This document shows, piece by piece, positions 6,472 to 56,046 of a stretch of 64,000 bases of DNA (positions within the stretch are counted from its first letter, which is position 1; the number at the start of each line of letters is the position of its first letter). The DNA comes from Octopus vulgaris. Its lineage: Eukaryota. The notes beneath the pieces were generated by a model, which worked only from the letters and a program-made list of their open reading frames with translations, was not told where the DNA came from and ran no database searches. The position numbers and the translations under genes are program-made. The stretch spans positions 17,484,001 through 17,548,000 of the forward strand of contig OX597815.1 of assembly GCA_951406725.2 (NCBI GenBank), given 5' to 3'.

Positions 6472-7010
6472 GAAAATTTGAACTCAAACCAGAAAGAACT
6501 GTAACTAAATACAGCAAAGTATTTTATCGAGCATTCTAATGATTCAACCAATCTACTACCCTTAAAGGATCGATATGTTATGTATATTTACTGATATAAG
6601 TTAACGAATATATCAATCTGATACTGCGTTTGATTCTAATTTCTTGTCACTTCTACGCTAGACAAGGATGCGTCACTCGTCTACGTTAATTGTAACTTAT
6701 TAAATATGCAATATGTCCAGCCACGTTACTTTATTGCCTTCGTTAGCTTGTTTACATCAGCTAAATCACGGCTTTAGGAACTTTGCGATAAGCACTTGGA
6801 AAATATTCTAGAAATACATTTTGATTACGAAAGCTTAAACGGCTTATAAAGCTGTTAATGTAATTTAAGAGGATATATGGAAAAGTATGGTAAACACAAG
6901 ACACAGATCAAACGTGTGTGTGTAAATACATATATAACTTTTATCCCGCAATGCCTGTTGCTTGCATCCAGCAATCCCTCATTCCACATGTGCTCTCTCA
7001 TTTCGATATC

Positions 7011-8117
7011 TATTTATTTACTACCCACAAGGGGGCTAAACACAGAGGAGACAAACAAGGACAGACACACGGATTAAGTCGATTACATCGACCCCAGTGC
7101 ATAACTGGTACTTAATTTATCGACCCCGAAAGGATGAAAGGCAAAGTCGACCTCGGCGGAATTTGAACTCAGAACGTAACGGCAGACGAAATACCTATTT
7201 CTTTACTACCCATAAGGGGCTAAACACAGAGGGGACAAACAAGGACAGACACACGGATTAAGTCGATTACATCGACCCCAGTGCGTAACTGGTACTTTAT
7301 TTATCGACCCCGAAAGGATGAAAGGCAAAGTCGATCTCGGCGGAATTTTCGACTCAGAACGTAACGGCAGACGAAATACCTATTTCTTTACTACCCACAA
7401 GGGGCTAAACACAGAGGGAACAAACAAGGACACACACGGATTAAGTCGATTACATCGATCCCAGTGCGTAACCCGAAAGGATGAATGGCAAAGTCGACCT
7501 CGGCGGAATTTGAACTCAGAACGTAACGGCAGACGAAATACCTATTTCTTTACTACCCACAAGGGGCTAAACACAGAGGGGACAAACAAGGACAGACACA
7601 CGGATTAAGTCGATTACATCGACCCCAGTGCGTAGCTGGTACTTAATTTATCGACCCCGAAATGATGAAAGGCAAAGTCGACCTCGGCGGAATTTGAACT
7701 CAGAACGTAACGGCAGACGAAATACCTATTTCTTTACTACCCACAAGGGGCTAAACACAGAGGGGACAAACAAGGACAGACACACGGATTAAGTCGATTA
7801 CATCGACCTCAGTGCGTAACTGGTACTTAATTTATCGACCCCGAAAGGATGAAAGGCATAGTCGACCTCGGCGGAATTTGAACTCAGAACGTAACAGCAG
7901 ACGAAATACCTATTTCTTTACTACCCACAAGGGGCTAAACACAGAGGGGACAAACAAGGACAGACACACGGATTAAGTCGATTACATCGACCTCAGTGCG
8001 TAACTGGTACTTAATTTATCGACCCCGAAAGGATGAAAGGCATAGTCGACCTCGGCGGAATTTGAACTCAGAACGTAACGGCAGACTAAATACGGCTACG
8101 CATTTTGCCCGGCGTAT
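7011..8117 (-). mobile_element. SINE A hexamer
   Basis: Units start at 7011, 7196, 7381, 7543, 7727, 7911 (about 184 bp, one internally deleted); 17-bp TSD TCTCTCATTTCGATATC at 6994-7010 and 8118-8134. Confidence 0.95.
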
Positions 8118-9244
8118 TCTCTCATTTCGATATCATCCACGCTTCTCCATCCACCATGTTCCTCTCACTTCGACTACTTTTGTTGAAGGTCTTATGACCG
8201 AACCGATTTCTTTCAATTCAGTTTTACTGATATCTGTTATATCAATTGTCTGTTTATCTGTTCAATATCGTCTTTACAAATGAAGTAACTGTCTCCTGTC
8301 GTATCCTTTTTGTTGTCTTGAAACACCTCAGTTATCATATATAGTTTTTTCGTTTTGTTTTCGATCTGTGTCTAATAATTTTAACCTTGGCAATTGTATT
8401 GATTTGATTCAGTTCTATGCGAATATTCGCAGGAGTTTATCAAACTCGAATAACATACTTGATCTATGATCCCATATTGTAATCACATGTTTGTGTATGT
8501 ATTTGTGTATATCTATACTCTAATAGAGAAAGCTACTTATTAATTAGCTATGTAACAATTACTAAAAGTACTAAAAGAAAGGAATTATTAAAGGGTTGAC
8601 TGTCTGGAAATATCTTTTATAAATTCATGTTCGTAGAAATTTCCTATAATTTCGATTTCTCAAGTTTCTTGAATTTTTTTAACTCCAATTTCTCGCAAAT
8701 TTAAATATTCATTGCATTCACTGCGGAGCATTCCATCCTCATTTGTAATCTCCCACTTTCTCTTTTAAGTTTTCATTCACTATTTGGAAAACCGACAGAT
8801 TATTCTATTAATGTATACATAATTTATTATTTATTGCATGGAAAGTTTCAAAATACCCGTATAATTTTTGAACGCGTGGTAGCTGTGAGAAGAGTCTAGA
8901 AAGCTGGTTAATTACTATTAGAAGACGAGGAGAAAGAAAAGTTACCGACAAGTACTTGAAGCTTGCACCTCATTTACGGTTTCCAAACACTCTGTAGCAC
9001 TAAACCAACAATATATACACAAGCAAGTCGCACGAGCGACTTCAACAGTGACGCACTCGCGCACACACACATAGATGCACATACACACAAATGAAAGGCA
9101 ATGAATGTGCGTGTGGGGGCTGCTGTTCACAGACAAAGCTTCGTGCTGCATTACTTTTGCGAAGTTTTGTCAGTGAGCAGATCGCGGTTCCAAAGCGAAG
9201 AAAATATTTTGCCACAAATGAAATTTTAATGTTGAAGTGAAACT

Positions 9245-16869: not shown

Positions 16870-17900
16870 AAAAATTAATACATATGTGTGTGTATATGTA
16901 TGTATATATGTGTATATGTATATATATGTATATATATATATATATATACATACGTATATGTGTGTGTATATGTATATATATATATATACACATGTATATA
17001 TATATATATATATGTATATGCGTATATATATGTATATGCATATATTTACACATGTATATATATATATATGTATATGCGTATATATATATGTATATGCGTA
17101 TATATATATGTATATGCATATATATATATACACATGTATATATATATACACATGTATATATATATGTATATGCATATATATATACACATGTATATAAATA
17201 TGTATATGCATATATATATATACACACACATATATATATATATATATATACATGTATATATATGTATATGCATATATATATATACACACATATATATATA
17301 TACATGTATATATATGTATATGCATATATATATATACACATATATATATATATATATACATGTATATATGTATATGCATATATATATATACATGTATATA
17401 TATGTATATGCATATATATATATACATGTATATATATGTATATGCATATATATATATACATGTATATATATGTATATGCATATATATATATACACACATA
17501 TATATATATATATATCATATATACACACACACACATATATATATATATATCATATATACACACACACACATATATATACACACACATATATATGCGTGTG
17601 TGTGTATATATATATATATATATACATATATATGCGTGTGTATATATGTATATCTATGTATATATATGTATATATATATGGGTATATATGCGTGTATATA
17701 TGTGTGTATATATGTGTGTATATATATGTGTATATATTTATATGTATATATATTTGTATTTGTGTATATATTTATATGTATATATATATGTGTATATATT
17801 TATACGTATGTGTATATATTTATACGTATATGTATATATTTATATGTATATGCATATATGTTTATATGTGTTTGTATGTATATACACACACATTTATTCA
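16870..17900. repeat. Long (TA)n/(TG)n/(CA)n compound tract with higher-order unit
   Basis: Recurrent CATGTATATATATGTATATGCATATATATATA unit; source of all ORFs at 16757-18000. Confidence 0.97.
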
Positions 17901-22540: not shown

Positions 22541-22726
22541 ATGTAATGTTGATATTAATAATTCTTTCTGTTATTGGTACAAGGCCAATAAGTTTGAGGG
22601 GAGAAAATCTATCACATCGATCCAGTACTTGATTGGTACTTATGTAAGGGGAAGTCGACTAGAGTAGAATTCGAACTTCGAACGGAAAGAGCTGGAAGAA
22701 ATGATGCAGAGCATTTTATCCTTTTT

Positions 22727-23325
22727 AATAATAATAATAATCCTTTCTATTATAGGCACAAGGCTTGAAATTTAGGGGAGGGAGATAGTCAATTACATCG
22801 ATCCCAGTGCGTAACCGGTACTTAATTCATCGATTCCCGAAAGGATGAAAGGCAAAGTCGACCTTGGTGGAATTTGAACTCAGAACGTAGCGGCAGACGA
22901 AATGCCTATTTCTTTATTACCCACAAGGGGGTTAACCACAGAGAGGACAAACAAGGACAGACAAACGGATTAAGTCGATTATATCGACCCCAGTGCATAA
23001 CTGGTACTTATTTAATCGACCCCCGAAAGGATGAAAGGCAAAGTCGACCTCGGTGGAATTTGAACTCAGAACGTAGCGGCAGACGAAATACCTATTTCTT
23101 TATTACCCACAAGGGGCTAAACACAGAGAGGACAAACAAGGACAGACAAACGGATTAAGTCGATTATATCGACCCCAGTGCGTAACTGGTACTTATTTAA
23201 TCGACCCCGAAAGGATGAAAAGCAAAGTCGACCTCGGCGGAATTTGAACTTTGAACGTAACCGCAGACGAAATACCGTTAAGCATTCCGCCCGGCGTGCT
23301 AACGTTTCTGCCATCTCGCCGCCTT
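22727..23325 (-). mobile_element. SINE A hetero-trimer
   Basis: Standard-tail units at 22907 and 23093 plus a terminal unit with the alternative (TAA)n tail; same junction as other arrays. Confidence 0.9.
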
Positions 23326-37383: not shown

Positions 37384-38588
37384 TATCTCCCTTTGTATTA
37401 CAAAAGCATAACCTTCTAAATGTGACGTGATGTAACATTAAAGAGTACGTATGCGTTATGTGTTTGTGCATGTATGCATATATGCACAATATGCTTTCTT
37501 CGCTTATATTGCATATGTTAACTTCGACTGGACAACTAATTTCTGTTAGTGTACAGCTTTTCTTTTCTCTTAATGTCTCTTGCCGATTATTCATATGTAT
37601 TATACAAAGCTTTTGACTGGAACGTTTCTTCAGTAATTTATTGGTATCAAAGGTGTGTGCGCCCTCTACGTCGTTGTAACCTTTTTTTTTTGTTGAACTT
37701 CGAAACTATTCCCCCGCTGTGCGGTGTTTCGGTCATTAGATCATAACTCAAAGGTTGATATTACCATGTTGACAGTTTCAGACAGCTGCTTATGATGTGA
37801 GTCACATTTTCCATATTAATTTCGTAGAGACTGTATCGATTGTCAAATCTAGGTGTTTTCTTATTTCCTATTCCTTGATGTCTCATATTTATGTTTTGCT
37901 TCGAGAGAAAGAAGCATATATATATATATACATGAATGTATGTGTACATTTATATATGTGTATATATGTATGTATTTTCTTATTTAGCATACATACATTC
38001 TTAGACAAAATATGACGAGATACAAAAATGTAAATTTTATGTTTGTATGGGAAATTCATACAATTAACTAATTGAAATATTTCCCTGGTAAGATCAGAAC
38101 TCTAAAAAGTATGTAATTGTTATGGACTGGCGTTATATTCCCTTGGTATTAATTTACTTCATTATTTATTGTTCTTTTACCAAATCACAAGGATTCATAA
38201 GGATGGTATTTATCTCCATGGAAACCACACATCTGGCAAAGCAGCATGCCAAAGACAAAGCTTCTATAAAATATTTCAGCTCTAGTAAGATACTGACTGT
38301 CTGCAAAGATCAAGTTAAAAAAACCCATTAATGTATTACATATCTGGGATGGCGCTTACACTACATGCACAATCTTGCTCAACCGCATGCAAAAGCAAAG
38401 TCCATCTGTCTGATTGGCAAATAGTCGCTCTAACACCTGCAACACACTACAACTTCTACTCAACGAACGCAGGGCTGCTTCTTTAGGTCATTTCTTCTTC
38501 TTCTTCTTCTTTCTCTTCTTCTATTGTTCTAACATATCCAAGACATCGTAGCCCCGTGTTTTTTTTTTTTTTTTTTTAACACTATATC

Positions 38589-39372
38589 TATTTCTTTACT
38601 ACCCACAAAGGGCTAAACACAGAGAGGACAAACAAGGACAGACAAACGGATCTAGTCGATTATATCGACCCCAGTGCGTAACTGGTACTTAATTTATCGA
38701 CCCCGAAAGGATGAAAGGCAAAGTCGACCTCGGCGGAATTTGAACTCAGAACGTAACGACAGACGAAACACCTATTTCTTTACTACCCACAAGGCGCTAA
38801 ACACAGAGAGGACAAACAAGGACAGACAAACGGATCTAGTCGATTACATCGACCCCAGTGCGTAACTGGTACTTAATTTATCGACCCCGAAAGGATGAAA
38901 GGCAAAGTCGACCTCGGCGGAATTGGAACTCAGAACGTAACGACAGACGAAACACCTATTTCTTTACTACCCACAAGGGGCTAAACACAGAGAGGACAAA
39001 CAAGGACAGACAAACGGATCTAGTCGATTACATCGACCCCAGTGCGTAACTGGTACTTAATTTATCGACCTCGAAAGGATGAAAGGCAAAGTCGACCTCG
39101 GCGGAATTTGAACTCAGAACGTAACGGCAGACGAAATACCTATTTCTTTACTACCCACAAGGGGCTAAACACAGAGAGGACAAACAAGGACAGACAAAGG
39201 GATTAAGTCGATTATATCGACCCCAGTGCGTAACTGGTTCTTAATTCATCGACCCCGAAAGGATGAAAGGCAAAGTCGACCTCCACAGAATTTGAACTCA
39301 GAACATAACGGCAGACGAAATACGGCTACGCATTTCGCCCGGCGTGCAAACGTTTCTGCCAGCTCGCCGCCT
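38589..39372 (-). mobile_element. SINE A tetramer
   Basis: Units at 38589, 38773, 38957, 39141; exact 184-bp period. Confidence 0.95.
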
Positions 39373-43722: not shown

Positions 43723-43850
43723 TTTGAAATTATATATAAGGCAGTGCCCCAACTTTTGAAATTATATATAAGGCAGTGCCCCAACTTTTGAAATTATATA
43801 TAAGGCAGTGCCCCAACTTTTGAAATTATATATAAGGCAGTGCCCCAACT
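43723..43850. repeat. 32-bp minisatellite, 4 perfect copies
   Basis: TTTGAAATTATATATAAGGCAGTGCCCCAACT x4. Confidence 0.97.
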
Positions 43851-43914
43851 TGACCATAGTCCAGTAACTGAGACAAATATAAAATAAAAGATATACATAT
43901 GTGTGTGTATAAAA

Positions 43915-54177: not shown

Positions 54178-55284
54178 TATATATATATATATACATACAT
54201 GTAAATATGTATATACATGTAAATATGTATGTGTGTATGGCATTTTGTGTTGTTCGTTTGAAAATTGCTGCTTAAACTTTGAATGCTATTTTCCTGTTTA
54301 TTTGTATGAAACAAGTGCATCACATGAGGTTTACAGTAATCTCTTTCTCTTTTAAATCTCTTTAAATACGGCAGTTTTGTTATCAAGCAACTCTAACATT
54401 GAATATATAACTTAGTGATTATTTAATATATTAAATGTAACCATACAATGTCAACAAGACGGACGTAACTGCTATTTGTATTTAGCAGAGATAACATATT
54501 GAAAATTACATTCAATTTTATCAACGACAATAACTTCAAATGCAAGTCTAGGTGTATTTTAAACTTATGACACACAGCTAAATATTTTAAAATCTAAAGT
54601 TACCTTTAAATCCGAATGAATATTCTCTATGCTTAGCGAATGCACTTGTTCACATTTCGTGTGTATGTATGTGTACACTACAAAAGCAGAAATATATAAT
54701 TACGTGAGCGTCTTATCTCGGCGTTCAATGGACTTCAATTTATAACGATTTCTTGTAACAAATCAGTCAATTTGTTTTCTCTGACACTTGGGAGTGTTTT
54801 CATTCCATTGCCATTAATTCTTATTCACATTATCTTATTAAGTATGCTTTGATTAATTCAGAGAAAAGAAATTAAAATGTACCCCCACTAGCAATTTAAT
54901 TAATTAGGTTAATAATGATATTATTTTATCGGTATGATACCTTTTCAATTGGAATAATGGTTCAAATTCTCTTAGAGTAATATCTACGCAACATTTCATG
55001 CTTAATTTCCGGAAGGGTCGAGCAAGACTCCACTTCAAGATGAAAATTGCGATACCTGTTCATAAAATTCATATTTCTTTCCGTTTTTTAACATCTCTTT
55101 TGAAAGTATTTCTTAGAAATAAATTCTCTGAAAACAACTTAATTCGCCCATCAATTGAAAAAATGTCGCAGCTGGCCATGAATCTCCCCAGAATCTACAT
55201 CACTATTGTTTTTTAGTTCAATGCTAATGACAACTAAGTTTGTCAGGGAATAATAGGCCAAACAGTTTGCCTAATTTAATAAAC

Positions 55285-56046
55285 TGTTTCTTTATTACCC
55301 ACAAGGGGCTAAACACAGAAGGGACAAACAAGAACAGACAAACGGATTAAGTCGATTACATCGTAACTGGTACTTAATTTATCGACCCCGAAAGGACGAA
55401 AGGCAAAGTCGACCTCGGTGGAATTTGAACTCAGAACGTAGCAGCAGGCAAAATACCTATTTCTTTACTGTCCACAAGGGGCTAAACACAGAAAGGACAA
55501 ACAAGGACAGACAAACGGATTAAGTCGATTACATCGACTCCAGTGCGTAACTGGTACTTAATTTATTGACCTCGAAAGGATGAAAGGCAAAGTCGACCTC
55601 GGCGGAATTTGAACTCCGAACGAAGCGGCAGACGAAATACCTATTTCTTTACTACCCACAAAGGTCTGAGGACAAAGACAGACAAACGGATTAAGTCGAT
55701 TATATCGACCCCAGTGCGTAACTGGTACTTAATTTAATTGACCCCGAAAGGATGAAAGACAAAGTCGACTTCGGCAGAATTTGAACTCAGAATGTAGCGG
55801 CTGGCGAAATACCTATTTCTTTACTGCCCATAAGGGGTTAAACACAGAAAGGACAAACAAGGACAGACAAAGGGATTAAGTCGATTATATCGACCCTAGT
55901 GCGTAACTGGTACTTAATTTATAGACCCCGAAAGGATGAAAGGCAAAGTCGACCTCGGCGGAATTTGAACTCAGAACGTAACGGCAGACGAAATACCGCT
56001 AAGCATTTCGCCCGGCGTGCTAACGATTCTGCCAGCTCACCGCCTT
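55285..56046 (-). mobile_element. SINE A tetramer, more diverged
   Basis: Units at 55285, 55458, 55642, 55814. Confidence 0.93.

Follow-up and report, generated by a model that had tools for sequence, protein, structure and literature searches.

How does a SINE come to stand in six head-to-tail copies inside a single target-site duplication (TSD)? The question is raised by an array at positions 7011-8117 of the window, the stretch of 64,000 nucleotides analysed here. The initial annotation had proposed that its units come from repeated copying of one template, by way of a circular RNA or of template jumps during target-primed reverse transcription, rather than from random unequal crossover. 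The analysis points to another course, which we regard as probable for the family: self-insertion of the SINE at a fixed base, retrotransposition of read-through RNAs, and local duplication of units together explain the arrays.

The hexamer and its neighbors

SINE positions are numbered after a natural full-length copy at window positions 39140-39372, in which the head spans 1-49 and the repeated unit 50-233. The array at 7011-8117 has a period of 184, and its SINE reads on the minus strand, as do all the features given here; its six head-to-tail units lie between two TSD copies (6994-7010 and 8118-8134) that are identical at 17/17 bases, as had been annotated. On the element's 5' side, bases 8116-8117 separate the TSD copy at 8118-8134 from the head. 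Unit 1, the 5'-most (7910-8115), covers SINE positions 28-233 and is the only unit with head sequence, limited to positions 28-49, which also agrees with the initial description; this truncated head (8094-8115) holds the 5' arm of a hairpin, and the joint base is in the 3' arm of that hairpin. Unit 2 (7726-7909) has two variants in common with unit 1 only, unit 3 (7542-7725) covers positions 50-233, unit 4 (7380-7541) covers the same positions with a 22-bp deletion, and unit 5 (7195-7379) covers them with one base extra. Unit 6, the 3'-most (7011-7194), covers positions 50-232 and has a G-type tail, whose last G is at the same time the first base of the TSD copy on the 3' side (6994-7010). All five internal joints are identical.

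The units are unequally distant from one another: there are 2 differing sites between units 1 and 2 and 5-8 in the other pairs. Four of the units are mutually equidistant and the 176 variant is present in all six, which is as expected from one template copied repeatedly. The variant that had been annotated as private to the hexamer is widespread, as a 34-mer containing it has 647 exact matches genome-wide (the common allele, 13,854). No sibling array of the hexamer was seen; the variant pair of units 1 and 2 has nine exact matches, two of them here and seven as singles elsewhere. The hexamer is probably a single insertion of a homogeneous multimeric RNA, as a 5'-truncated multimer, or else a shorter multimer that grew soon after insertion; a later duplication or conversion would account for units 1 and 2. 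The hexamer taken alone may have been made by same-template iteration.

Reads or contigs of four sequencing runs were compared with this locus, the two raw-read runs giving only 3 and 66 reads, and they do not constitute evidence on mechanism. In contigs of runs labelled as two other organisms, the left flank of the hexamer is joined to a SINE tail, with the unit number unreadable. Runs X22 and X23 gave very few matching reads for a high-copy repeat. Reads of run X23 at window positions 7596, 7905 and 7964 show another joint, from tail to tail region, that is absent from the sampled genome sequence.

The joint is not confined to the hexamer. The window has 13 occurrences of its 15-mer (up to 2 mismatches allowed), spread over four arrays, where 0.22 would be expected by chance, in line with the annotated recurrence in three other arrays. 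These are a trimer with a full head and a tail-B-like last unit, and thus a hetero-multimer (22745-23325), a tetramer with a full head, in which a private variant pair is common to the three 3' units and absent from the head unit (38588-39372), and a tetramer with a full head and units strongly diverged from one another (55284-56046). Among the four arrays a clear TSD flanks the hexamer only; the array at 38.6 kb has an 8-bp match and that at 55.3 kb none, in a list that left out the array at 22.8 kb, which ends in another tail. An old diverged SINE fragment (22580-22710) adjoins the trimer. The window also contains a degenerate TA microsatellite of 975 bp (16893-17867) and a 32-bp tandem repeat in four perfect copies (43723-43851).

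The label SINE A is that of the initial annotation alone, and we take the element to be an octopus family of tRNA-like SINEs. It is short, dispersed and of high copy number (12,265 exact matches of a 47-mer). Neither ARAGORN nor Rfam (E 5 or less) gave a tRNA or RNA family match, and motifs like the A and B boxes in the head were assigned by eye against the usual consensus. Short motif look-ups in published supplements, aimed at the conserved central domain of the MetaSINE or CORE superfamily, returned one unrelated-looking match and otherwise none.

Array architecture across the genome

Genome-wide counts were made in the assembly that contains the window (G000, 2.80 Gb). A 24-mer spanning the joint has 26,764 exact matches and a 25-mer with the head in register 39,657, with 0 for the controls. 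In sampled sequence the joint, for which a census had been suggested at the outset, is fixed: 177 of 192 joints restart at positions 49-52 (158 of them running exactly from 233 to 50), 10 restart at 16-18 and 5 elsewhere. Multi-unit elements account for 99 of 384 in 1,664 kb of contiguous sequence, and the longest sampled array has 9 units. Array hits guided the choice of 400 kb of this sequence. The other 1,264 kb consists of the window with its surroundings, an arbitrarily chosen block and two further blocks placed around variant hits; of 139 A-tail elements there, 82 are monomers and 57 (about 41%) are multimers, with 2 to 9 units. Scaling from 45 exact joints to 57 multimers gives a rough figure of about 34,000 arrays genome-wide.

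A template in the form of a 184-nt circular RNA, or a single RNA copied over and over, would account for the fixed joint as well as for the equidistant units and common variant of the hexamer, and a circle would also suit the place of the joint base, which is only two bases away from the loop of the head hairpin. This hairpin alone is stable, and folding of a full SINE copy gives z -1.2, which is not significant. Such an origin is nevertheless highly improbable for the family. A full head, which the circle would not contain, starts 108 of 118 multimers (within the first 15 head bases), and a start at positions 48-53 was seen in just 3 of 230 elements. A unit of another type, with tail B, is the last unit of 49 multimers. 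The units of 24 A-A dimers agree at sites 126/129 and show no agreement at 158, 174, 196, 201, 220 and 222, six of the main tail-side variants. Units within one array are of different lineages and ages, contrary to the single template first proposed. Nor is the hexamer variant generally a property of whole arrays: of 18 other multimers in which at least two units span the site, 2 have it throughout (1/12 targeted, 1/6 sampled), and most carry it in a single unit; some of these cases might reflect recurrent mutation, which weakens the test. CUGANGA, the core motif of hammerhead ribozymes, is absent from either strand, and Rfam gave nothing at E 5 or less.

Unit types are specific to position, an outcome named beforehand as one that would count against the circle: besides the tail-B last units, there is a second A-tail variant that terminal units carry more often (20-25/59, vs 11-22/117 in first units). 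The lack of T4 that would let a polymerase read through an array is confirmed for the sense strand of the hexamer; in 46 of 119 sampled multimers, however, T4 precedes the last unit. What stands of the originally proposed origin is the fixed joint, tied to target-primed reverse transcription and not to random crossover, while the circle or repeated copying does not stand for the family.

Some loci deviate from the common architecture. Arrays with mixed joints at 50 and 16 are found near 18.077 Mb of contig C1 (L239) and at L243-L245; one of these shows a two-unit higher-order repeat, and three nearby loci are alike in structure and scores. Near 17.771 Mb of contig C2 (L182), a tail fragment together with flank forms a repeat with a 105-bp period.

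Formation of the joint

The proposed course begins when a SINE inserts between positions 49 and 50 of an older copy and generates a 16-bp TSD, which leaves an old head, a young SINE and an old body in succession; this step is visible in the sequence. In an unselected sample of 239 headed elements, read by eye, 5 had an older SINE as target and lie close to its position 50 (by chance, 0.07% of positions). The pattern of old head, TSD and new head, with at most 2 mismatches allowed, has 39 matches genome-wide, all at one offset, and 0 in the control. Thirty of these loci were cut out, and 23 were analysed after removal of six overlapping hits and one unresolved 65-bp tandem. In 21 of the 23, what follows the inner tail is the body of the old copy, continuing from the joint base (49/50), on a side that lay outside the selecting pattern; two show no resumption at 50, and several could be head duplications. 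Outer heads are diverged by 13.0% and inner heads by 4.8%, and in at least 10 of the 23 the sequence of the outer TSD copy agrees with that of the downstream unit, as opposed to that of the inner element. The resumption at the joint base, together with old outer and young inner heads, indicates that ordinary target-primed insertion remakes the exact joint repeatedly. Two nested loci are insertions into an already existing joint.

Near 26.348-26.365 Mb of contig C23 (L164-L166), a segment of about 3 kb is repeated several times, each copy containing a SINE that lies within an older one at position 50. At four other loci (L263, L267, L270 and L276), a unit of 64-65 bp composed of SINE head and TSD forms tandem arrays, a further class of repeat that nested insertions gave rise to.

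The position of the joint goes with the type of tail. Joints after the common tail are at position 50 in 167 cases and at 16 in none, whereas those after the second tail are at 16 in 9 cases and at 50 in 2; the second joint (position 16, second tail) has 2,142 exact matches genome-wide. The bases that follow terminal copies differ in parallel: GGTA follows 27 of 89 copies with the common tail vs 1 of 29 with the second, and AGAA 1 of 89 vs 8 of 29. We infer that the site is chosen by microhomology priming, in which GGTA, following the common tail in the RNA, or AGAA, following the second, would pair with the nicked target. Up to 332 of 1,904 GGTAT sites are inside SINEs, and the nested rate (about 2%) is close to what a plain GGTAT preference would give, so that SINE-specific targeting is unproven. 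Extra targeting by the head hairpin was considered and is not needed.

A candidate for the partner element is a LINE with an open reading frame of 1,126 amino acids containing EN, RT and zf-RVT domains (L086, 5951-9331, minus strand), further copies of which stand in tandem inside (TATC)n tracts at L086-L087. Its 3' end and the SINE tail are identical at 39 of 47 aligned bases, and the shared end comprises the last 42 bases. Judged from this sequence likeness, the LINE is likely the partner of the SINE. We assign it, presumably, to the L1/Tx1 clade on the basis of its motifs and microsatellite context.

A probable route from nested loci to dispersed arrays

After self-insertion, RNA polymerase III would initiate at the young head and, where no T4 intervenes, continue through the old body and its tail; a LINE with the same last 42 bases would then copy this composite RNA elsewhere, from the last or an internal tail. 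TSDs flank 35 of 53 A-ended multimers, 16 of 32 B-ended multimers and 61 of 90 monomers (in the latter of 9-22 bp), against 2 of 150 shuffled pairs, and multimers other than nested loci are mostly without an old outer head. A young head and an own TSD in most multimers suggest that composite RNAs were likely retrotransposed. The heads of B-ended multimers are as young as those of A monomers (p 0.27) and younger than those of B monomers (p 2e-4), and evidence on the ages of their TSDs is weak, resting on 16 TSDs. In 47 of 55 B-ended arrays divergence is higher in the terminal B unit than in unit 1 (8.6% vs 4.4%), a difference that unresolved B subfamilies may inflate; first and last units of A-ended arrays do not differ (p 0.12). 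Within the same B subtype, last units and monomers are diverged by 8.2% (n=22) vs 8.8% (n=11). These observations fit a proposed read-through of nested loci followed by composite retrotransposition from many sources. Strong amplification of composites would be required, given nested loci at about 2% and multimers at about 41%. No clear sibling clusters were found among 35 last-B units, and no source-daughter pair of composites was traced.

The same proportions would be explained if most joints were template jumps in reverse transcription and nested DNA insertions a side product. The cDNA end at position 50 of one RNA would prime on the tail of another RNA through the same microhomology, giving the same joint and tail rule, and units of mixed lineage in one array, as well as many unrelated B units, would follow. 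Template jumps in vivo are reported for R2 (PMC3414825). Against this origin for most joints, which we consider unlikely, the intermediates observed are insertions into a DNA target, and copies whose synthesis stopped at 48-53 are so rare (3 of 230) that no pause or RNA end is seen there. Moreover, a jump would be needed in most B-primed events, as the joint followed by a B body has 2,700 matches vs 971 for the head followed by a B body.

The joint might also have arisen once or a few times in master multimers from which all arrays descend, with expansion at the DNA level. Position-specific unit types, TSDs around multimers and blocks of shared mutations (see below) accord with such descent, which is still improbable: independent formation of the joint is visible at many old targets that are unrelated to one another, there are two different joints, and last-B units, which fall into no clear sibling clusters, match genomic B monomers in their divergence.

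Growth in place is a further route, in which the 5' end of a self-insertion anneals to the homologous old head, so that a unit is added and the old TSD kept. A B-type base at position 64 of unit 1, present in about 8 of the 46 multimers that end in B as against 6 of 97 A monomers, and private tracts near the joint that are common to units in some dimers, are as this route would leave them. The heads of B-ended multimers are, however, diverged by 3.7%, 8.3% and 7.4% in three segments vs 11.6%, 16.6% and 14.0% in B monomers, and 9-12 of 46 carry head variants found only in A. Since these heads are young along their length, growth in place with the old head is mostly rejected, and the route as a whole is very improbable.

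Returning to self-insertion and read-through, which we favor, a last step would change the number of units after insertion, by unequal crossover, slippage or conversion between 184-bp units; its pattern is present in the arrays and its timing is less direct. At least two rare variants are common to adjacent units in 2 of 26 dimers, 8 of 43 pairs in trimers and 34 of 93 in longer arrays, against 9 of 3,000 comparisons between loci. Among 42 arrays with at least three A units, variants are shared by a subset of units in 31, by all units only in 1 and not at all in 10, and the subset-shared variants occupy contiguous units in 48 cases and noncontiguous units in 17. Such blocks of shared mutations suggest that units were duplicated locally at a later time. 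In one heptamer, four internal units combine the 5' variants of the last unit with the 3' variants of the second unit, as a crossover inside a unit would leave them. At least one rare variant is common to the units of 12 of 26 dimers (5% between loci), and a variant occurs in all units of 5 of 42 longer arrays; this sharing, like the six-unit variant of the hexamer, is predicted by same-template copying too. Inheritance of a multimer with post-insertion expansion, which the initial annotation listed as its main alternative, is thus a part of the answer; the self-insertion step was missing from it.

With RNA that would run from the tail into joint sequence, priming would be best on targets that resemble the element's own head. 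More tentatively, therefore, these steps might form a ratchet in which each round remakes the joint, captures dead old copies and seeds 184-bp arrays at tens of thousands of sites, and in which each tail variant would select its own site. By this process dispersed SINEs could give rise to short satellites and old copies could be re-mobilised, and repeat libraries of this genome may miscount the SINE family.

No report of arrays of this family or of fixed-site self-insertion was found in the literature consulted; subscription papers, supplements, figures or Repbase/Dfam may hold one. The portions available of PMC13282606, PMC4758252, PMC4824008 and PMC9795677 contain nothing on such arrays. The array architecture itself is already published for a clam, and it is for the fixed-site mechanism that no report was found.

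Metazoan non-LTR retrozymes resemble these arrays in having non-autonomous units of 170-400 nt in tandem, but type I hammerheads and circular RNA are their defining features (PMC11722881), whereas the present arrays have a head, mixed units and no hammerhead core. SINE-derived satellites (sSat) of squamates are likewise tandem, with units that all stem from one fixed portion of a SINE and a terminal unit that is longer, and their unit number differs between orthologous loci (PMC10702118). They are described as subtelomeric, with up to 1,000 units, ascribed to duplication and without true dimeric SINEs (PMC10702118); the arrays described here are short (2-9 units, in 1.66 Mb sampled of 2,800 Mb), dispersed and TSD-flanked. 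Crocodilian SINEU-3, which Tx1-Mar mobilises, thus has a Tx1-type partner, inserts into another repeat and becomes tandem by sequential insertion; its target is a Mariner and a TSD lies between units (PMC4494074), unlike the own-head target of the present SINE with its weak preference of about 2%.

A likeness is also found in a mollusc, the blood clam Scapharca broughtonii, where multimers of the form TSD-(SINE)n-TSD reach 15 units, with a complete-head first unit, followers cut at one head position and one TSD (PMC11481361). Internal units in the clam lack the tail and its first units are cut short there too, whereas 158 of 192 joints here keep it to position 233. About 3% of clam SINEs are tandem or palindromic, and the authors discuss unequal recombination between TSDs (PMC11481361); in the present genome about 41% of A-tail elements are multimeric, with self-insertion intermediates. 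Rodents and bats have multimers of B2, Dip and Ves; those that are head-to-tail include 40-49% of B2 and Dip copies, reach eight units and may mix families (PMC8466645). Their units are described as full-length (PMC8466645), in contrast to the followers here, each of which lacks the first 49 bases, as insertion into the head at a fixed base would cause. For B2 dimers the authors left insertion and a dimeric template as alternatives, and the origin of SINE multimers, by insertion of copy into copy or by copying of multimeric RNA, is open in the literature (PMC8466645). With both steps countable in one genome, and with intermediates, two tail-matched joints and about 34,000 arrays, this question becomes directly testable.
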